From: a virus
Taxonomy: Duplodnaviria; Heunggongvirae; Uroviricota; Caudoviricetes
DNA: 24,361 nt
Reading direction: 5' to 3' (one strand)
Virus record (IMG/VR): IMGVR_UViG_2700989535_000002
This document shows positions 2,583-11,362 of the stretch, piece after piece. The translations under genes and the position numbers were made by a program. The notes below the pieces were generated by a model. The model was not told where the DNA came from. It ran no database searches and saw only the letters and a program-made list of their open reading frames with translations. Position 1 is the stretch's first letter, and the number at the start of each line of letters is the position of its first letter.

Positions 2583-3079
2583 CAGTGATGACGCTCAATC
2601 TCGTTGAAAAACAGCCAGCAGCTATGCGCCGGATAATTGGTAAGCATCTTGCCGTTCCTCGCTGGCAGGATACATGTGATTATTATAATCAGATGATGGA
2701 GCGCGAACGGTTAACGGTTTGCTTCCATGCTCAGTTAAAACAGCGTCACGCAACGATGTGTTTTGAAGAAATGAACGACGTCGAACGTGAACGACTGGTA
2801 TGTGCAATTGATGAATTGCGTGGTGCATTCTCAAAACGCCGTCAGGTTGGCGCAAGTGAGTATGCATATATTAGTTTTTTAACAGTCAGTCAGCGTCGTA
2901 CTTTATTTATGCATGCCGGATTGACTGAAAAAGAATTCAACCAGCCATACTGGCGAATTAATGAAGAGTCATGTTACTGGCGTGATGCTTTATTCCGTGC
3001 ATTACGTGAATTATTCAGTCTGTTTGAGTATGCACCGACAATTCTGACGTCGGTAAAACCGGAGCAATATCTGCATTAA
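2579..3079 (+). CDS. B: Replication protein B
   Basis: 166 aa from ATG at 2579 (GGAGG 8 nt upstream; the track start at 2573 is too close to the SD). Same length and position as P2 B. Confidence 0.8.
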   Translation: MTVMTLNLVEKQPAAMRRIIGKHLAVPRWQDTCDYYNQMMERERLTVCFHAQLKQRHATMCFEEMNDVERERLVCAIDELRGAFSKRRQVGASEYAYISFLTVSQRRTLFMHAGLTEKEFNQPYWRINEESCYWRDALFRALRELFSLFEYAPTILTSVKPEQYLH

Positions 3080-3142
3080 GTAATTAACCAGAGTTTTTAA
3101 CGCACTTAATTGTGCGGGGCTTCTTTTTGCCTGGAGAAAGTT

Positions 3143-3367
3143 ATGCATACAGTTTCTGAAAATCAGTGCGGTATATACGCATTACTGCTGCAACAGGCCA
3201 GAACCGAAGCACAGGCCGACGCTGCGACGCGCTTTTCTTCTCATCTTGATGCCATGATTCGCCACATCACAAAGGCGGAGTTATCCCGCGTGGAGATAGT
3301 CGAGCTGCTCAGTCAGGAGTCGGAAAAATTTCACAATATCGGATTGTCTCGCGGGGAGGTGCTTTGA
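3143..3367 (+). CDS. Small early protein (P2 orf80 position)
   Basis: 74 aa from ATG at 3143 with SD GGAG 6 nt upstream; stop overlaps the next start. Confidence 0.6.
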
Positions 3368-3669
3368 TGTTCTGTTCTCGTTCAGTTGTATTACTGAATA
3401 ACGCCTTAAAAATCGCCGTTATGAAAAATGGCGATTTGTCTCTTATTCAACTTGGTCTTGATAAAGAAAAACGCGAAATAACTGAGTCTGTTATCGCGAT
3501 CTATCAGAACGAATTAAACCTCCTGTCTGATGTGGTCAATTTACTTGTTAAACGCGCTGTGTTTCACAAGCAAATCTCCTCCGTGGATGAACTGACGAAA
3601 TTAACGACAGAAATCGCCAGCTATTGCGCTGATGAATTTAAAAACCTTAACGACAAAAGGAACTGGTAA
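3364..3669 (+). CDS. Small early protein (P2 orf81 position)
   Basis: 101-aa ORF, overlapping start/stop with neighbours (operon-style coupling). Confidence 0.6.
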
Positions 3670-3893
3670 TGCCGGACAACGTAGATTTTATTCAGGAACA
3701 ACAGGCTGAATTACTGGAGCGCCAGATTAACGCGGCAAGGGTAAAACATTGCGGTGCTTCTGCGCTGGTTTGCGAAGAGTGTGACGCGCCAATACCTGCT
3801 GCCCGTCGTGCGGCTTACCCGTCAGCCACGCGTTGTGTTTCCTGTCAGTCAGTCTTTGAAGCAAAAAACAAACATTACCGGAGAACGGCATGA
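3669..3893 (+). CDS. TraR/DksA-type C4 zinc-finger protein (P2 orf82 position)
   Basis: 74 aa with paired CxxC motifs (CEECDAPIP ... CVSCQ) typical of TraR/DksA-family zinc fingers. Confidence 0.65.
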   Translation: MPDNVDFIQEQQAELLERQINAARVKHCGASALVCEECDAPIPAARRAAYPSATRCVSCQSVFEAKNKHYRRTA

Positions 3894-4165
3894 GTATTCG
3901 TATTGAAATTGGCGAACGTTATGTCGTTACCAGTGACAGCTTTCAGTTTATTCTCCACGAGAAAAAGAGAGCGGAAAGCGGTAAAAACGCCGGTCAGGAA
4001 TGGCTGGCGGTGGTTGGTTATTACCCGAAATTAAGCCAGCTCGTTTCAGGCCTGATGCATCACGATATTCTGACCGGAAGCGCAAAGTCTTTTGCTGATT
4101 TAAACGTGCAGGTTGAGCAACTCAGCAAGCGTTGTTCAGAGGCTTTTGGCTCATATGGCCGTTAA
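3890..4165 (+). CDS. Small early protein (P2 orf83 position)
   Basis: 91-aa ORF coupled to neighbours; ends 11 nt inside A. Confidence 0.55.
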   Translation: MSIRIEIGERYVVTSDSFQFILHEKKRAESGKNAGQEWLAVVGYYPKLSQLVSGLMHHDILTGSAKSFADLNVQVEQLSKRCSEAFGSYGR

Positions 4166-6443
4166 AGCCTCCGGGCGTTTTGTCCCTCCGTCAGCATTTG
4201 CCGCAGGCACCGGTAAGGCGTTTACCGGTGCTTATGCATGGAACGCGCCACGCGAGGCTGTCGGGCGCGAAAGACCCCTTACACGTGATGAGATGCGTCA
4301 GGTGCAAGGTGTTTTATCCACGATTAACCGCCTGCCTTACTTTTTGCGCTCGCTGTTTACTTCACGCTATGACTACATCCGGCGCAATAAAAGCCCGGTG
4401 CACGGGTTTTATTTTCTCACATCCACTTTTCAGCGTCGTTTATGGCCGCGCATTGAGCGTGTGAATCAGCGCCATGAAATGAACACCGACGCGTCGTTGC
4501 TGTTTCTGGCAGAGCGTGACCATTATGCGCGTCTGCCGGGGATGAATGACAAGGAGCTGAAAAAGTTTGCCGCCCGTATCTCATCGCAGCTTTTCATGAT
4601 GTATGAGGAACTCTGCGATGCCTGGGTGGATGCGCATGGCGAAAAAGAATCGCTGTTTACGGATGAGGCGCAGGCTCACCTCTATGGTCATGTTGCTGGT
4701 GCTGCACGTGCTTTCAATATTTCCCCTCTCTACTGGAAAAAATACCGTAAAGGGCAGATGACCACGAGGCAGGCATATTCTGCCATTGCCCGTCTGTTTA
4801 ACGATGAGTGGTGGACCCATCAGCTTAAAGGCCAGCGTATGCGCTGGCATGAGGCGTTACTGATTGCTGTCGGGGAGGTCAATAAAGACCGTTCTCCTTA
4901 TGCCAGTAAACATGCCATTCGTGATGTGCGTGCACGCCGCCAGGCAAATCTGGAATTTCTTAAATCGTGTGATCTCGAAAACAGGGAAACCGGCGAGCGC
5001 ATCGACCTTATCAGTAAGGTGATGGGCAGTATTTCTAATCCTGAAATTCGCCGGATGGAGCTGATGAACACCATTGCCGGTATTGAGCGTTACGCCGCAG
5101 CAGAGGGTGATGTGGGGATGTTTATCACGCTGACCGCGCCGTCAAAGTATCACCCGACACGTCAGGTCAGAAAAGGCGAAAGTAAAACCGTCCAGCTAAA
5201 TCACGGCTGGAACGATGAGGCATTTAATCCAAAGGATGCGCAGCGTTATCTCTGCCGTATCTGGAGCCTGATGCGCACGGCATTCAAGGATAATGATTTA
5301 CAGGTCTACGGTTTGCGTGTCGTCGAGCCACACCACGACGGAACGCCGCACTGGCATATGATGCTTTTTTGTAATCCGCGCCAGCGTAACCAGATTATCG
5401 AAATCATGCGTCGCTATGCGCTCAAAGAGGATGGCGACGAAAGAGGAGCCGCGCGAAACCGTTTTCAGGCAAAACATCTTAACCGGGGCGGTGCTGCGGG
5501 ATATATCGCGAAATACATTTCAAAAAACATCGACGGCTATGCACTGGATGGTCAGCTCGATAACGACACCGGCAGGCCGCTGAAAGACACTGCAGCGGCT
5601 GTTAGCGCATGGGCGTCAACGTGGCGCATCCCGCAATTTAAAACGGTTGGCCTGCCGACAATGGGGGCTTACCGTGAACTACGCAAATTGCCGCGCGGCG
5701 TCAGCATTGCTGATGAGTTTGACGAGCGCGTCGAGGCTGCACGCGCCGCCGCAGACAGTGGTGATTTTGCGTTGTATATCAGCGCGCAGGGTGGGGCAAA
5801 TGTCCCGCGCGATTGTCAGACTGTCAGAGTCGCCCGTAGCCCGTCGGATGACGTTAACGAGTACGAGGAAGAAGTCGAGAGAGTGGTCGGCATTTACGCG
5901 CCGCATCTCGGCGCGCGTCATATTCATATCACCAGAACGACGGACTGGCGCATTGTGCCGAAAGTTCCGGTCGTTGAGCCTTTGACTTTAAAAAGCGGCA
6001 TCGCCGCGCCTCGGAGTCCTGTCAATAACTGTGGAAAGCTCACCGGCGGTAATACTTCGTTACCGGTTCCCACGCCTTCTGAGCACGCCGCAGCAGTGCT
6101 TAATCTGGTTGATGACGGTGTTATCGAATGGAATGACCCGGAGGTCGTGAGGACGCTCAGGGGTGCATTAAAACACGGACTGAGAAGACCAAACCGTCAG
6201 CAAAGAAACGGAAGCCCGTTAAAACCACATGAAATTGCGCCATCGGCCAGACTGACCCGGTCGGAACGAATGCAAATCACCCGTATCCGCGTTGACCTTG
6301 CTCAGAACGGTATCAGGCCGCAGCGATGGGAGCTTGAGGCGCTGGCGCGTGGGGCAACCGTAAATTATGGCGGAAAAAAATTCACGTATCTGGTTGCTAA
6401 TGAGTGGTTCGGGTTTCAAGATGACGTGTCATTTTTCATATAA
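4155..6443 (+). CDS. A: Replication initiation endonuclease A (rolling-circle initiator)
   Basis: 762 aa from ATG at 4155 (track ORF begins at 4113). Large last gene of the early operon, same position and nearly same size as P2 A. Contains HxH-like GTPHWHMM and tyrosine-rich GYIAKYISKN segments typical of rolling-circle initiators. Confidence 0.85.
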   Translation: MAVKASGRFVPPSAFAAGTGKAFTGAYAWNAPREAVGRERPLTRDEMRQVQGVLSTINRLPYFLRSLFTSRYDYIRRNKSPVHGFYFLTSTFQRRLWPRIERVNQRHEMNTDASLLFLAERDHYARLPGMNDKELKKFAARISSQLFMMYEELCDAWVDAHGEKESLFTDEAQAHLYGHVAGAARAFNISPLYWKKYRKGQMTTRQAYSAIARLFNDEWWTHQLKGQRMRWHEALLIAVGEVNKDRSPYASKHAIRDVRARRQANLEFLKSCDLENRETGERIDLISKVMGSISNPEIRRMELMNTIAGIERYAAAEGDVGMFITLTAPSKYHPTRQVRKGESKTVQLNHGWNDEAFNPKDAQRYLCRIWSLMRTAFKDNDLQVYGLRVVEPHHDGTPHWHMMLFCNPRQRNQIIEIMRRYALKEDGDERGAARNRFQAKHLNRGGAAGYIAKYISKNIDGYALDGQLDNDTGRPLKDTAAAVSAWASTWRIPQFKTVGLPTMGAYRELRKLPRGVSIADEFDERVEAARAAADSGDFALYISAQGGANVPRDCQTVRVARSPSDDVNEYEEEVERVVGIYAPHLGARHIHITRTTDWRIVPKVPVVEPLTLKSGIAAPRSPVNNCGKLTGGNTSLPVPTPSEHAAAVLNLVDDGVIEWNDPEVVRTLRGALKHGLRRPNRQQRNGSPLKPHEIAPSARLTRSERMQITRIRVDLAQNGIRPQRWELEALARGATVNYGGKKFTYLVANEWFGFQDDVSFFI

Positions 6444-6619
6444 AACATTTCAAAATTCAATGTAATGAAAGCATATCGTATATCGCTTTAATATGTGTTA
6501 TTCTTCTTGGTTGTTAATGTTTGATTTTATATGAAAAAATATTATATATAGAAAGATCAAATACAACGGTTTACTTGTTATGATGCAATTATTGGTTAGT
6601 TAGTGAGATACATCGCCAT

Positions 6620-6860
6620 CAATTGGGTATTTTTTACCCGTGGAAAGTTAACACTTTCTACCGTTTACCCCGCGCAACGCCCCTGCCAGCGACAAGAGTC
6701 ACAGGACCAGGTGGTATGGCGTATGGGAATTCGAACCCTTTGGGCGACAAAGGGTTCGTGGAGCAGGGAGCTAGTGCTGTTCAATCTCATCCTTATGAGG
6801 GCGAACCATAGTGTTGGAGCAGACATACCGTTTGCACACTATGGGCATAAGGAGCAAATC
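6620..6860 (+). ncRNA. Candidate structured RNA / long 5' leader upstream of the RT operon (possible retron msr-msd)
   Basis: GC-richer than the flanking AT-rich spacer. Perfect hairpins: GAAAGT/ACTTTC (6643-6658), CGAACCCTTTG/CAAAGGGTTCG (6732-6758), and a composite stem CCTTATG..CCATAGTGT / ACACTATGG..CATAAGG (6791-6852) whose 3' arm overlaps the downstream SD. a1/a2 repeats not identified, so retron ncRNA identity is unproven. Confidence 0.3.
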
Positions 6861-7016
6861 ATGAAGAATGATAAATTAACCAACGAACAGCAGGCGCAGA
6901 ACAAGTCAAACCTGAAAAAGAGGGCTGGTTATGCTTGGGAATTATTCAAATGGGGTATTAGACTGTTTGATTTAGTCACTCGAGCACTGGGCTACTTAGA
7001 AGGGGGTGGTGAGTAA
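6861..7016 (+). CDS. Small 51-aa protein of unknown function
   Basis: ATG at 6861 with strong SD AAGGAG 6 nt upstream; polar N-terminus, amphipathic C-terminus (AGYAWELFKWGIRLFDLVTRALGYL). The longer GTG-initiated track ORF (6603) is not supported. Confidence 0.4.
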   Translation: MKNDKLTNEQQAQNKSNLKKRAGYAWELFKWGIRLFDLVTRALGYLEGGGE

Positions 7017-7052
7017 TGCGTCCTCCCTAGTTTCAATAGCATGGAGTTGCCT

Positions 7053-7361
7053 ATGTTACATAAAGCCCTTCGTTTAATAAGGCAATACCATAAAGAATCA
7101 ATAGTTGAGTTATCTTCATCTTTAGGTATTCCAAAAGACAAAATAGTATCGCTTGAAAGCGGAGTTTGGTCACCGTCGATTGAAGTCTTAGAGCGTTACG
7201 CCTCCCATTTCGACATACCAGTATCCTCTTTAGTATTCTTTTCGGAATCATTAGGCACGCAAGGCCGTTTGTCTAAGCGATTGCGTTTAAATTTAGCCGG
7301 TAAAGTTCTGGATGTTCTGGAGTGGGTAAGTAATAAAAATGAAAAAACGGAAAAAGCTTAA
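7053..7361 (+). CDS. XRE-family helix-turn-helix DNA-binding protein
   Basis: 102 aa from ATG at 7053 (GGAG 6 nt upstream). HTH_3-like segment LSSSLGIPKDKIVSLESGVWSPSIEVLERYASHFDIP. Its 3' end overlaps the RT start by 23 nt. Confidence 0.6.
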   Translation: MLHKALRLIRQYHKESIVELSSSLGIPKDKIVSLESGVWSPSIEVLERYASHFDIPVSSLVFFSESLGTQGRLSKRLRLNLAGKVLDVLEWVSNKNEKTEKA

Positions 7362-8289
7362 GGTTAATACTAAAAATAAATCTTATGACATAATGGATTC
7401 GCCATTTTACAAACTCAAAAGTAAAAGAAAACTGGCGAATTTGCTTTGTGTTAGTCTTGAAGAATTATACTCTTTGAGAAAAGATGAAGGAAACTATTCC
7501 GTTTTTGAGCAACTTTCTAAAAAAGGAAAAGCACGAAAAATACAAAAGCCTTTAGAAAAACTAGAACTTGTACATACACGAATTGCAAGTTTGTTATCAC
7601 GGATTGCTTTGCCAGAATATCTGCACTCGGGGAAGAAGAAGTGCTCTAATGTGACGAATGCTAAAGCTCATCTTAATAATGAAAAGATGATGACAACAGA
7701 TATTAAAGCTTTTTTTCCATCAACTACAAGAGGGATGATATTTTCTTTTTTCTTTTCGGTGATGAAAATGTCATCTGATGTTGCTGATGTTTTGTCCCAC
7801 ATATGTACTTGTCATGACCGATTACCAACAGGTAGTCGCATCAGTATGCCGTTGGCATATTTTGCAAATTCAAGAATGTTTGGTGAAATATATCAACTTT
7901 GCCAAAAGTTACGAGTTAACATGACTGTTTATGTTGATGATCTCACTTTTTCAGGTGGTAACGTAAATCGATTGTTTTGCGCTGTAATTCGTAAGATCGT
8001 TAATAAGCATGGACATGTTATACACCCAACGAAAACAAAATTATATGCCAGAGATAAGCCTAAGTTGGTAACTGGAGTTATTGTATTCGGTAATGCTTTA
8101 AAAGTTAGGAATGAGCAGCATTTTTTGATGGCTAGGGAAATAGATTATTGGAAAATAATTAAAGACGCCGAAAATGCGAGAGAAACAATCATTGCCAAAA
8201 AGCTCTTTGGCCGTTTGCATTCAATGGGAGTGATTGAGCAACGTTACAAATCGAAGGTGCTTACTTTAAAGGCTAATACTGCAAATTAA
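7339..8289 (+). CDS. Reverse transcriptase, retron-type
   Basis: 316 aa. NAKAH (NAxxH), TDIKAFFPS, LPTGSRISMPLAYFAN, YVDDLTFS (YxDD catalytic motif) and LVTGVIV (VTG) align motif-by-motif with retron RTs such as Ec86 as recalled. Alternative start at 7393 possible. Confidence 0.8.
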   Translation: MKKRKKLKVNTKNKSYDIMDSPFYKLKSKRKLANLLCVSLEELYSLRKDEGNYSVFEQLSKKGKARKIQKPLEKLELVHTRIASLLSRIALPEYLHSGKKKCSNVTNAKAHLNNEKMMTTDIKAFFPSTTRGMIFSFFFSVMKMSSDVADVLSHICTCHDRLPTGSRISMPLAYFANSRMFGEIYQLCQKLRVNMTVYVDDLTFSGGNVNRLFCAVIRKIVNKHGHVIHPTKTKLYARDKPKLVTGVIVFGNALKVRNEQHFLMAREIDYWKIIKDAENARETIIAKKLFGRLHSMGVIEQRYKSKVLTLKANTAN

Positions 8290-8412
8290 CATATTGAATG
8301 TATTGCATAAAAGCATCAATAATTAAAATGACTTGGCGTTAGTAACGCCGCAAGTGCAGGAATTTACTTTCGATGCAGGCGGTGTTGATTAGAAACCTCA
8401 GAAAGTAGTTAG

Positions 8413-8850
8413 CTATGAAGCTGACGTCACAAAATTAACGCCAAGAGTCAACAGGTTTGTCACTGCTCCAGCAATTACACCTGGAGTTCCGTCTTTTACT
8501 GCACTGATAATTTTATCACCCATCGTTTCATTACCGCCAAGTGCTTCGGGTTTTTTGTTGAGCACCGCGAGTGCTTTCTCGGTCAGGCGCACATCATGAA
8601 AACCGGTCTGATGGTCTGTTCCGTACAGAATATAGCCGTTTTCGCTTAGGAAAGTGAATGTGCCATCAACCACACTACGCAACTGATTCAGTGCTTTCAT
8701 TTCTGGTGAGTTAAGTTGGTCAAAGTAGTCATCAGGTAACGCGGCGTTAAATTTTTTGTAGGTGATGACTTGTGGTACAGGAAAGTTATCCCATAGCACC
8801 GCAAAGATTTCTGCCGTCTGTTGGTTGAATAATTCGAGATTTTTGGACAT
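8413..8850 (-). CDS. Hypothetical tail-anchored membrane protein (145 aa)
   Basis: Minus-strand ORF with SD AGGGA 7 nt upstream of ATG; soluble N-terminal ~115 aa and C-terminal hydrophobic helix (GTPGVIAGAVTNLLTLGVNFV). Convergent with the RT operon. Confidence 0.6.
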   Translation of the reverse strand: MSKNLELFNQQTAEIFAVLWDNFPVPQVITYKKFNAALPDDYFDQLNSPEMKALNQLRSVVDGTFTFLSENGYILYGTDHQTGFHDVRLTEKALAVLNKKPEALGGNETMGDKIISAVKDGTPGVIAGAVTNLLTLGVNFVTSAS

Positions 8851-9181
8851 GCATAGTTCCCTTTCATCAATTAAAGACCCTTATGCCGACTGGGCAAAGA
8901 GGCTAACTGTAATGGCCTCAAATAACGACCTGAGCTCTCGCGAGGTGGACAGTTACACTGAAAAAATGGTTGAACAAGCCAGTAAAGATGAGCTTATGGT
9001 CGTTATAAAATACCTGTTAAATCACATCAGAATGAATAAATAAAATGATCTATATCAAGATGTTATCTCACATTTATGAAAGTCCGTGGACAACGATTTT
9101 TCTGCTAATTGTTGTCAGTACGTGCCTCAACAGTGTGATTGGTGCATTGCGCGGCCAGTGACAACTATAAAAATTGATCAG

Positions 9182-9210
9182 AACCGGCATCATGAATGCC
9201 GGTTTTTTTG
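9182..9210 (+). terminator. Intrinsic terminator-like hairpin
   Basis: AACCGGCAT / ATGCCGGTT 9-bp perfect stem, 5-nt loop, followed by a 7-T run. Confidence 0.5.
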
Positions 9211-9367
9211 TGCTTTTTCTGTGATATCCCCGTTTTTATCTGTGCATGCAATATGTGCATGGTTTTGCATGTGCCGGAGTTACATGTTCTGGCCGTGCGT
9301 CCGCCAAGACTGGCGTGGCTCAAAAGCGGTATTGCAACTGCATTAAAACCGCCCCATGAAGCGGGCG

Positions 9368-9386
9368 GGCGAGGCGGGGAGAGCAT
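9368..9386. other. Candidate cos (cohesive end) site
   Basis: GGCGAGGCGGGGAGAGCAT matches the P2 19-nt cohesive end as recalled (GGCGAGGCGGGGAAAGCAC) at 17 of 19 positions; sits between A and Q as expected. Confidence 0.45.
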
Positions 9387-9461
9387 TGCCCGCATCCGTT
9401 GTTTTATGTTATTACTACATTGTTAAATTGGATGATTCTTATTTCTTGTGAGGAAGCTGTT

Positions 9462-10730
9462 ATGGCATTGATTGAAGGATTTCGAATATCAAATTTCAGG
9501 TCTCTGAAGAACGTTACGTTAGGAAAAACTTGGAACGATAGAACAAAGAAACCATTGACACCACTTACGGTTGTTATTGGGCGTAATGGTTCTGGAAAAA
9601 GTTCGCTTTTTGATGCATTTGGTTTCTTGGCTGATGCCCTTACCTATGGGGTAGAAGAAGCATGTCATAAGAATGGTCGCGGTGGCTTCGAACGCTTACG
9701 GTCTGCAGGGAGTAGTGAGGATATTGAATTCGAGATTTACTATAGAGAATCACCAAAAGACCGTCCAATCACATATGAATTGTCAATTGGCATTGATGCT
9801 ACTGGAAGACCTATAGTTAAGAAAGAAAGGTTGCGTCAGCGCAGGAGAGGTCAAAATAGAGGGTGGCCTTTCTCTTTTCTTGAATTATACAATGGAGTAG
9901 GAAAGGTTTGGTCAGGGGAATCTTTGTCAGAAAAAAATGAAGAGCATGGCAATATTGATGTTTTGTTAAGTGAAGAGTCTAATGGAACTATGCCAATCGA
10001 GCTAAGCAATACTCAAATGCTTGGTATTGCTACTTTAGGCAACTTGAAAGAGCATCCGAGAATAGCCAGATTCAGAAAATTTATTGAAGGCTGGTATCTT
10101 TCTTATTTTACTCCTGATGCTGCAAGAGATTTGCCTCGAGTTGGCCCGCAGAAACATCTAAATAGAATAGGTGATAACTTAGGCAATTTTGTTCAGTATA
10201 TGGAAAGAGAACATCCCAAAAAATTTAGACAGGTTCTTGAGGATATAGCCCTGAAGATTCCAGGAATTATAAAGATAGATACAGAAGCATCACCTGATGG
10301 AAGATTGCTTTTAAGGTTTTTTAACAAGGGTTTTGATAAACCATTTTATGCTCAACAAATATCTGATGGAACATTAAAACTGTTTGCTTACATGCTTCTC
10401 TTGGAAGATCCTGACCCTGCACCGTTTGTATGTATAGAGGAGCCAGAGAACGGCCTGTATCATAAATTATTACAATCTCTTGCAGAGGAATTTAGGAGCC
10501 ACGCTACAGGTAAGAAAGGTGATTCTCAGTTGTTTGTAACTACTCATCAACCATATTTTGTGGATGCACTCAATCCAGAGGAAGTATGGATATTAGAAAA
10601 AGAATCAGATGGCTTTTCCGTGCTGAGTAGAGCATCTGACTATCCTGATGTGATGGCAATGTATGAACAAGGATTGCCGTTAGGAAGTTTATGGTACAGT
10701 GATCACATTGATAGCAAGGAATTTGACTGA
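9462..10730 (+). CDS. ABC-type / AAA_21-like ATPase (OLD/AriA/AbiLi-like)
   Basis: 422 aa from ATG at 9462 (GAGGAAG SD; the track start at 9399 is TTG). N-terminal FRISNFRSL ... VVIGRNGSGKSSLFDAF (Walker A); C-terminal FVCIEEPENGLYH (Walker B/D-loop) and FVTTHQPYF (H-loop). Confidence 0.85.
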   Translation: MALIEGFRISNFRSLKNVTLGKTWNDRTKKPLTPLTVVIGRNGSGKSSLFDAFGFLADALTYGVEEACHKNGRGGFERLRSAGSSEDIEFEIYYRESPKDRPITYELSIGIDATGRPIVKKERLRQRRRGQNRGWPFSFLELYNGVGKVWSGESLSEKNEEHGNIDVLLSEESNGTMPIELSNTQMLGIATLGNLKEHPRIARFRKFIEGWYLSYFTPDAARDLPRVGPQKHLNRIGDNLGNFVQYMEREHPKKFRQVLEDIALKIPGIIKIDTEASPDGRLLLRFFNKGFDKPFYAQQISDGTLKLFAYMLLLEDPDPAPFVCIEEPENGLYHKLLQSLAEEFRSHATGKKGDSQLFVTTHQPYFVDALNPEEVWILEKESDGFSVLSRASDYPDVMAMYEQGLPLGSLWYSDHIDSKEFD

Positions 10731-11362
10731 TGCATTATGAGATCTTAGTCGAGGGACAATGTGAACTAACTGCTCTTTCAATTCTATTACCTAAGATTAT
10801 TGGAGAGTATAATAATCCACATACTTGGAAAATACATAAACATAGAGGTAATGGTTCTATTCCTGATAACCCAGCATTAGCTCCAAAAATTTCAGATACT
10901 TCACTCTTGGGGCAATTGCCTGCAAAATTAAGGGCTTACTCCAATAATCCAGACCCTAATAGAAAAGTGATTGTATTATTAGATCTAGATGATAAAGATC
11001 GAGAATCGTTCCATACGGCTCTAATTGACTTGTTAAAATATTGTTCGAATCCGTTTGATGTGTCATTTCCTTTTGCAGAAGAGGAATTAGAAGCATGGTA
11101 CCTTGGTGATAGACAAGCATTGATAGCTTACAATGCAAAAATCAATATGACAAAACTAAATGGCTATATTCAAGACTCAATATGTGATACATGGCGTTTT
11201 TTATTAGAGGCTGATGAGCCTTCACTGTTAAAACTGAAAAAGAAAGATAAAAGACTGCTTGAAAAGAAAGTTTTCTGGGCTAAAAAAATTACTCCTCATA
11301 TGGATGTTGATAGGAATTTATCGCCTAGTTTTAATAGTTTTAAAGAATGTTTGCATAATTAA
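10730..11362 (+). CDS. TOPRIM-like small protein (DUF4276/DUF4435-style) partnered with the ATPase
   Basis: 210 aa; start overlaps the ATPase stop (TGATG). N-terminal ILVEGQCE and VIVLLDLDD (DxD) resemble TOPRIM/OLD-family nuclease motifs; EEELEAWYLGD downstream. Confidence 0.6.
   Translation: MHYEILVEGQCELTALSILLPKIIGEYNNPHTWKIHKHRGNGSIPDNPALAPKISDTSLLGQLPAKLRAYSNNPDPNRKVIVLLDLDDKDRESFHTALIDLLKYCSNPFDVSFPFAEEELEAWYLGDRQALIAYNAKINMTKLNGYIQDSICDTWRFLLEADEPSLLKLKKKDKRLLEKKVFWAKKITPHMDVDRNLSPSFNSFKECLHN

Follow-up and report, generated by a model that had tools for sequence, protein, structure and literature searches.

An XRE-type HTH protein whose gene overlaps that of a retron reverse transcriptase in a P2-like Escherichia coli prophage is a subunit of a type VI retron

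In the window (the whole stretch of viral DNA analyzed here, 24,361 nucleotides), the P2 replication gene A was identified at positions 4113–6443 (Phage_GPA, E 6e-123). A retron lies 3' of this gene, between gene A and the region where related prophages hold the portal gene. It is composed of a structured leader RNA (hyRNA) with an embedded SP gene, an HTH gene and a reverse transcriptase (RT) gene, all on the plus strand:

6556–6584, plus strand: putative promoter, with a -35 element ATCAAA (6556–6561), a 17-nt spacer and a -10 element TATGAT (6579–6584)
6590–7036, plus strand: hyRNA, an msr-msd-like structured leader with the embedded SP coding sequence; both ends are predicted
6666–6729, plus strand: candidate msd, a long variable stem-loop (alignment columns 86–105 pair with columns 178–200)
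6732–6758, plus strand: conserved hairpin, an 11-bp perfect inverted repeat whose loop contains the first repeat copy, GGGCGAC (6742–6748)
6790–6873, plus strand: riboregulator, with an outer stem (6790–6797/6846–6853), an internal loop, an inner hairpin (6806–6844) and an AUG hairpin (6859–6862/6868–6871)
6861–7016, plus strand: SP, 51 aa, polar and rich in Lys at the N-terminus, with a hydrophobic helix at the C-terminus; predicted toxic effector
7053–7361, plus strand: HTH, 102 aa, with an XRE domain at residues 1–64 (five helices) and a long conserved C-terminal helix at residues 75–101
7339–7361, plus strand: HTH/RT overlap, 23 nt, the RT being in the +1 frame
7339–8289, plus strand: RT, 316 aa, with NAKAH (residue 107), YVDD (198–201) and VTG (244)

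The plus-strand listing of open reading frames (ORFs) gives an ORF at 7041–7361 (106 aa) followed by one at 7339–8289 (316 aa). In a 99.9% identical E. coli locus, RefSeq/PGAP places the HTH gene at 7053–7361 (WP_001310277.1) and the RT gene at 7339–8289 (WP_001762321.1). The sequence MLHKALR forms the N-terminus in all 25 of the aligned HTH homologs, N-terminal extensions being found in two, and a GGAG motif (7043–7046) is located 6 nt 5' of the ATG at 7053. Since the homologs begin at this position and the spacing of the GGAG is that of a Shine-Dalgarno (SD) sequence, 7053 is the better HTH start. The ATG at 7041 was rejected: the homologs start at the equivalent of 7053, and the GGAG, which falls in codons 1–2 of the longer ORF, is the SD of the shorter one. 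As regards the RT, the N-terminal residues read from the 7339 start (KLK-V/I-x-TKNKSY) are kept in RTs down to about 45% identity, and a downstream start at Met19 (7393), which would remove the overlap, was discarded because residues 2–18 are conserved. Both starts being upheld by the conservation of their homologs, the 23-nt overlap is real, and the end of the HTH gene does lie inside the RT N-terminus, as had been noticed in a first-pass annotation made from the sequence alone.

The HTH_VI profile of PADLOC matches the HTH protein over 91 of its 92 positions (E 7.7e-31), and 83 HTH homologs were found; on these two grounds, the HTH gene is not a chance ORF. Its assignment to the XRE type, already proposed in the first pass, was confirmed at several levels. 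A profile of the family (26 members) matches SinR, PezA, CylR2, C.BclI, DdrO and HipB at about 1e-6. The AlphaFold2 model (mean pLDDT 80, and 83–92 over residues 1–60) shows the five-helix XRE fold followed by helix 75–101, and can be superimposed on the DNA-binding domain of SinR with an rmsd of 1.1 Å over 62 residues. In Foldseek comparisons of this model with the SinR, DdrO and C.BclI domains, the TM scores were 0.8–0.9 (target-normalised) and the rmsd values 1.0–1.2 Å, the best E-value being 2e-3 and none reaching 0.001. The search with HTH_3/XRE models that had been suggested in the first pass gave a divided answer: the PADLOC profile matches at full length, but the Pfam models HTH_31 (18.6 bits, cut-off 27), HTH_19 (17.8, cut-off 30.2) and HTH_3 (17.9, cut-off 23), with E-values of about 3e-3, all remain below their gathering scores in this protein. 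Precomputed PF01381 matches are present in many of its homologs. The ORF at 7053–7361 is thus an XRE/Cro-C1-type HTH protein, the standard HTH subunit of a type VI retron.

PHROGs places the HTH protein in a generic "transcriptional regulator" family, and the gene is located inside a P2-like prophage. It might accordingly be read as a regulator of the prophage, or as a spurious ORF, abutting the RT gene by chance. This reading is extremely improbable and is effectively refuted: the match to HTH_VI is specific, the prophage has C and Cox regulator genes of its own at another place, as annotated in the related locus L001, and the HTH-RT pair, which spans Alpha-, Beta- and Gammaproteobacteria, is not confined to prophages, being found next to T4SS genes (L076), a resolvase gene (L068) and rpoD (L083).

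In the alignment of 25 homologs, helix 1 (R7, R10, H13), the FDIPVSSLVFFSE segment and the C-terminal helix contain the invariant positions of the HTH protein. Few parts of the family are as conserved as helix 75–101, in which A82, K84 and W91 do not vary. The recognition helix is IPKDKIVSLESG in the enterobacterial clade, and the distant members keep the XRE consensus ISKSYLSELESG. The five-helix fold is shared with the XRE antitoxins and repressors HipB, PezA, HigA, SinR, CylR2 and C.BclI, and SinR, like the HTH protein, has a C-terminal helical extension, a feature used for protein-protein contacts. Type VI HTH proteins differ from the XRE repressors in their known partners, which are the RT, an RNA and a small toxin, and in their poorly conserved recognition helix.

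These features bear on the question as to whether the protein might be a classical XRE repressor, which would bind an operator at about 6540–6600 and autoregulate the operon, as the antitoxins HipB, HigA and PezA do. The intact DNA-binding fold, the nearest solved relatives, which are DNA-binding repressors and antitoxins, and the textbook recognition-helix motif of the distant members of the family are in line with this possibility. In the enterobacterial clade, however, the recognition helix has drifted from that motif, and the Pfam HTH models score below their gathering thresholds. The promoter region does not favor it either. The promoter-like site, which would predict a transcript start near 6590, has as its counterpart TTGACA-17 nt-TAATCT in L002 and L068, two Vibrio relatives, with TAGTGT in L078; a generic promoter scan did not list the site at 6556–6584. 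The spacer between its -35 and -10 elements is not conserved among relatives with 75–89% identical HTH proteins, and no shared palindrome was evident at the promoter upon inspecting the alignment of nine sequences. Lastly, the published phenotypes are explained via a complex of RNA and protein, and there is no report of DNA binding. A classical repressor therefore seems unlikely. The first-pass annotation had taken the DNA at 6560–6860 as the target to be examined for HTH binding; this is probably the wrong molecule, given that in published work HTH interacts with the RT, the hyRNA and SP.

The RT sequence gave a match with the RT_VI profile of PADLOC covering 278 of 279 positions (E 2.8e-105, 349.6 bits), the runner-up being RT_III-A (4.7e-45). 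It also matches Pfam RVT_1, just over the cut-off, and phrog_2825. The retron RT motifs NAxxH, YVDD and VTG are all present, and the catalytic YVDD is intact. Going by these profile scores and motifs, it is a type VI (clade 3) retron RT. A partial RT showing 87% identity has been recorded from Salmonella.

The first-pass annotation took the overlap to mean that the two genes are translationally coupled and co-expressed. Co-expression is borne out by the conservation of the overlap, which was found in 47 of the 60 loci where the two genes are adjacent, and which shows co-transcription and a shared evolutionary constraint. Coupling is a less secure matter. No well-spaced SD precedes the RT AUG, either in the window or in the relatives, and yet this AUG lies within an unstructured A-rich stretch (fold z = +0.4) that allows independent initiation. 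Translation of the RT might be coupled with that of the HTH protein, and independent initiation is equally possible. Structure-dependent coupling was rejected, no significant RNA structure being present around the RT start. A programmed frameshift yielding an HTH-RT fusion via the A-rich overlap was also discarded, as the A-run is not kept in the relatives, among which no conserved slippery site was found at the overlap.

The region 6560–7060 folds better than shuffled sequences (z = -3.98, based on the single sequence), and the RNAalifold consensus of nine relatives includes 90 pairs, 29 of which show compensatory double changes. Many compensatory pairs are present in the candidate msd stem, where the relatives have a loop insert of variable length. 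The hairpin at 6732–6758 folds in all nine relatives, and its stem has undergone compensatory changes in L076, L078 and L002. The same riboregulator was obtained from each of the nine sequences folded alone, and three pairs of the outer stem and most of the inner stem covary. The outer stem buries the SP SD, AGGAG (6850–6854), and the small hairpin covers the SP AUG. Additional pairing was found between 6775–6782 and 6885–6892, and a long-range inverted repeat (6759–6770/7023–7035) closes the SP-containing domain of the hyRNA.

The internal loop of the riboregulator contains the second repeat copy, GGGCGAA (6799–6805), and in each of the nine sequences this loop includes a conserved unpaired AGGGCGAAC (AGGCGAAC in L077 and L068). 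GGGCGA is therefore a direct repeat, one copy of which is located in the loop of the conserved hairpin and the other in that of the riboregulator; the 7-nt copies match at six of their seven positions. This layout is the arrangement given by Zhang et al. (10.1101/2025.10.22.683967) for the conserved 7-nt repeats. An 8-nt repeat, TACCGTTT (6659–6666 and 6826–6833), was rejected as a functional repeat, since it is not repeated in the other eight relatives. When the whole window was compared with Rfam, no match reached a gathering threshold, Rfam having no type VI ncRNA family. Two plus-strand ORFs in this region, 6603–7016 (137 aa) and 6623–6811 (62 aa), were dismissed as by-products of the structured RNA; they are not annotated by PGAP. 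A conserved 5' UCGCC (6613–6617) is complementary to both GGCGA copies (within 6742–6748 and 6799–6805). RNAalifold pairs it with the copy in the hairpin loop, at invariant positions without any covariation. It has the same sense as a cDNA copy of that loop, which hints at a pseudoknot or an alternative switch pairing.

The SP gene (translation MKNDKLTNEQQAQNKSNLKKRAGYAWELFKWGIRLFDLVTRALGYLEGGGE), which the AGGAG of the outer stem serves as SD, was overlooked in the gene layout of the first-pass annotation; it encodes the component that the HTH protein would restrain. It is annotated by PGAP as WP_001762320.1, and its product matches phrog_15287 over the full length (E 1.7e-32). Its stop codon is located 36 nt before the HTH start, as it is in L068 and L070–L073, and the protein is 31% identical to the SP of the Vibrio parahaemolyticus type VI retron in L068. 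Based on its position and these matches, the ORF at 6861–7016 is the SP of a type VI retron, a predicted toxin. Starting from an in-frame ATG at 6795, SP would gain 22 residues encoded by the riboregulator and reach 73 aa. Longer SP calls, of 97 aa or more, exist elsewhere (L074; phrog_5826), and the SPs annotated as 79 aa long in the cl2075 lineage have an N-terminal extension of about 25 aa that is not part of the structural core and may be translated riboregulator sequence.

Type VI retrons were defined by their Cro/C1-type HTH partner (Mestre et al., 2020, PMC7736814), a protein of 91–110 aa belonging to cluster 2_1, the gene of which is directly upstream of the RT gene or overlaps it (PMC7736814). 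The order of the operon is ncRNA, SP, HTH and RT (Zhang et al., 10.1101/2025.10.22.683967). [quoted passage not shown] Judging from its sequence, the system is a complete type VI retron, consisting of a putative promoter, a hyRNA with SP, HTH and RT. The HTH protein is an already described subunit and not a new RT partner; it is ordinary for its family and can be annotated with HMMs.

The distribution of this gene order was analyzed in 66 independent loci obtained by a pattern search with the HTH alignment, which belong to Alpha-, Beta- and Gammaproteobacteria and other groups. The RT start is located between -60 and +40 nt from the HTH stop in 60 of the 66. The commonest lengths of overlap among the 47 overlapping pairs are 20, 23 and 26 nt, and 22 pairs have an overlap of 20–26 nt. 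Nearly all the 66 loci carry an SP-like ORF of 45–65 aa, the product of which is basic at the N-terminus and has a hydrophobic helix at the C-terminus; its stop is mostly located 25–60 nt ahead of the HTH gene. The leader-SP-HTH-RT order is widespread, and the overlap is not peculiar to the window. In the complete genome of Neopusillimonas aromaticivorans (L013, chromosome, 3001–4299), HTH and RT form a single in-frame ORF of 432 aa. This fits a physical HTH-RT complex; the ORF may be either a real Rosetta-stone fusion or the result of an assembly indel.

One relative studied experimentally is Retron-Vpa2. The RT homolog P0158 of V. parahaemolyticus was found in locus L083 with an SP ORF upstream, and since this 55-aa SP has K15, I39, F43 and F45, which are the positions at which the Vpa2 SP was mutated experimentally, L083 is the Retron-Vpa2 locus or an identical allele. 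Locus L068 was rejected as Retron-Vpa2, as the V. parahaemolyticus type VI SP encoded there lacks I39, F43 and F45. At least three type VI retron alleles occur in V. parahaemolyticus (L068, L084 and L083), with SPs of 50, 47 and 55 aa, respectively. The order leader, SP, HTH, RT is common to Vpa2 and the window. The Vpa2 HTH and RT are 48% and 55% identical to those of the window, respectively, R7 is present in both HTH proteins, and the HTH/RT overlap is 20 nt long in Vpa2 versus 23 nt in the window. The hyRNA of Vpa2, which is roughly 470 nt long and has three arms, is matched by that of the window, and both sequester the RBS and AUG of an SP of about 50 aa with a hydrophobic C-terminus. In each, a 7-nt direct repeat is located in the loops of the hairpin and of the riboregulator (GGACGAA in Vpa2, GGGCGA-C/A in the window), and the SP stop codon is followed by the CCCTAGTTTC motif and a conserved 3' inverted repeat. 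The window differs from Vpa2 in that its SP can barely be aligned with the Vpa2 SP, and in its host and mobile element, an E. coli P2-like prophage hotspot. The candidate msd stem-loop of the window is about 64 nt long.

In Vpa2, RT, HTH and hyRNA co-purify, and HTH represses reverse transcription and hence the translation of the toxin (Zhang et al., 10.1101/2025.10.22.683967); the idea put forward in the first pass that HTH might have a regulatory role reaching the leader agrees with these data. Loss of HTH raises the msDNA level about 5-fold and de-represses SP, and both the R7D substitution in HTH and deletion of the non-coding leader are toxic (10.1101/2025.10.22.683967). The Vpa2 SP is under translational repression, and its inducers are lambda Beta+Exo, the loss of HTH (only with an active RT) and msDNA supplied in trans, the 5' stem-loop of the msDNA being required (10.1101/2025.10.22.683967). 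The toxicity of SP has been demonstrated in Vpa2 and in Sen3 (10.1101/2025.10.22.683967; 10.64898/2026.04.27.721009). Deleting HTH was expected in the first pass to have consequences, and this is so in the relatives: Vpa2 R7D is toxic, and a frameshifted Sen3 HTH cannot be maintained.

In the light of these data, the HTH protein of the window is likely to act as the brake of the type VI retron, binding the RT and the hyRNA in a riboregulator switch of the Vpa2 type. The gene content, the family, the conserved synteny and overlap, the covarying RNA structure and the repeat pair were all established in the present analysis. The binding partners, the repression, the trigger and the toxicity are transferred from relatives, the mechanistic sources being two preprints (2025–26) on proteins about 48% identical or less to those of the window. 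One transcript would yield all four parts, and the gene overlap would link HTH and RT synthesis. HTH bound to the RT and hyRNA would limit the reverse transcription of the msd, and with little cDNA, the SP RBS would stay buried in the 6790–6797/6846–6853 stem. During infection, phage recombination or anti-RecBCD functions would cause cDNA to accumulate; the cDNA complement of GGGCGAC (6742–6748) would then pair with GGGCGAA (6799–6805) and the stem would open. Translation of SP would follow, arresting the infected cell (abortive infection). The C-terminal helix of HTH might also bind SP directly, as a protein antitoxin, which is not exclusive with its role as a brake.

A direct action of HTH on SP has been described in Retron-Sen3 of Salmonella enterica (cl2075 lineage), in which HTH is purified together with the RT and cells are not viable without it (Garcia-Rodriguez et al., 10.64898/2026.04.27.721009). 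The Sen3 HTH neutralises SP without the RT or the ncRNA, the ssDNA and SP are produced constitutively, control is post-translational, and the trigger is the loss of RecBCD function (10.64898/2026.04.27.721009). If the same logic held in the window, cDNA and SP would be constitutive, and HTH would be solely an antitoxin sequestering SP via its C-terminal helix; the RT-HTH contact would relay RecBCD inhibition and the riboregulator would not be decisive. We regard this as possible rather than probable, and it is compatible with the Vpa2-type brake. Helix 75–101, which is so highly conserved, corresponds to the alpha-6 predicted to bind SP in Sen3, where neutralisation by HTH alone was observed, and the two systems have in common an enterobacterial host, the same three proteins and a structured RNA embedding SP. 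The proteins themselves differ, however. The Sen3 SP has 79 aa and starts with MKYETL, whereas that of the window, with its 51 aa, is close to the 55 aa of Vpa2 and lacks the N-terminal and amphipathic C-terminal extensions typical of cl2075. The Sen3 RT has 319 aa with YVDD at 191–194, versus 316 aa and 198–201 in the window, and the Sen3 HTH ends in ...APSY (as read from the reverse primer), unlike the HTH of the window. This inferred C-terminus was present in none of the 83 HTH matches, and a search with the published Sen3 primer sequence gave only chance matches in viral contigs. In addition, the window resembles Vpa2 in the strong conservation of the stem that sequesters the RBS and of the repeat pair. 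The Vpa2-type brake is favored here because the window shares with Vpa2 the short SP, the sequestered RBS and the repeat pair. Since Vpa2 (translational control by msDNA) and Sen3 (a post-translational antitoxin) disagree, lineage-specific behavior is to be expected.

A more speculative proposal, which we make tentatively, is that the HTH proteins of enterobacterial, P2-borne retrons no longer bind DNA and may serve as a dual hub, both repressing cDNA synthesis in the RNA/RT-bound state and directly sequestering any leaked SP. The conserved 20–26-nt overlap might then set the HTH:RT ratio, and the L013 fusion might be the extreme case.

Type VI retrons are at present the least conventional of all retrons, as their cDNA turns a toxin on instead of restraining it. 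The HTH and RT genes are called by defence-annotation HMMs and the role of HTH has been studied experimentally in relatives, so that the present data do not amount to a new discovery. The retron in the window is a native, widespread E. coli example in which the published RNA and protein features are intact, and it offers a practical, host-matched means of telling the two competing models for HTH apart.

Of 5426 complete E. coli genomes, 100 (about 2%) carry the same retron, 10 of them with at least 99% identity. Eco12, an E. coli type VI retron, defends against lambda-vir under its native promoter, and its msDNA is undetectable at rest (Zhang et al., 10.1101/2025.10.22.683967). In view of its frequency in E. 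coli genomes, the element in the window may be Retron-Eco12 or a close allele. Within its P2-like E. coli prophage, the retron is carried as cargo at the gpA-portal defence hotspot, which was described by Rousset et al. (2022, PMC9122126). As an otherwise identical retron in L001 has different cargo downstream, this hotspot is a mosaic.

Several other features are located 3' of the RT gene. A palindromic hairpin (8335–8349, GGCGTTAGTAACGCC) separates the RT gene from a convergent ORF of 145 aa (8413–8850, minus strand), which matches phrog_2266 (unknown function; E 1.2e-60) and gave no Pfam or PADLOC match. This ORF is partly overlapped by one of 93 aa (8762–9043, plus strand) matching phrog_2454. 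A candidate HEC-01 defence pair occupies 9399–11362 (plus strand): an AAA_21/AAA_15 ATPase gene (443 aa) is followed, with a 1-nt overlap, by one encoding a DUF4276 protein (210 aa), and the two were identified with PADLOC as HEC-01A (E 2.6e-190) and HEC-01B (E 7.5e-81). Seven terminator-like sites were counted in the region 6300–9500, versus 2.9 expected, and strong terminator-like hairpins at 9180–9206 (plus strand) and 9349–9368 (minus strand) flank a gap of about 150 nt just 5' of the HEC-01 pair.
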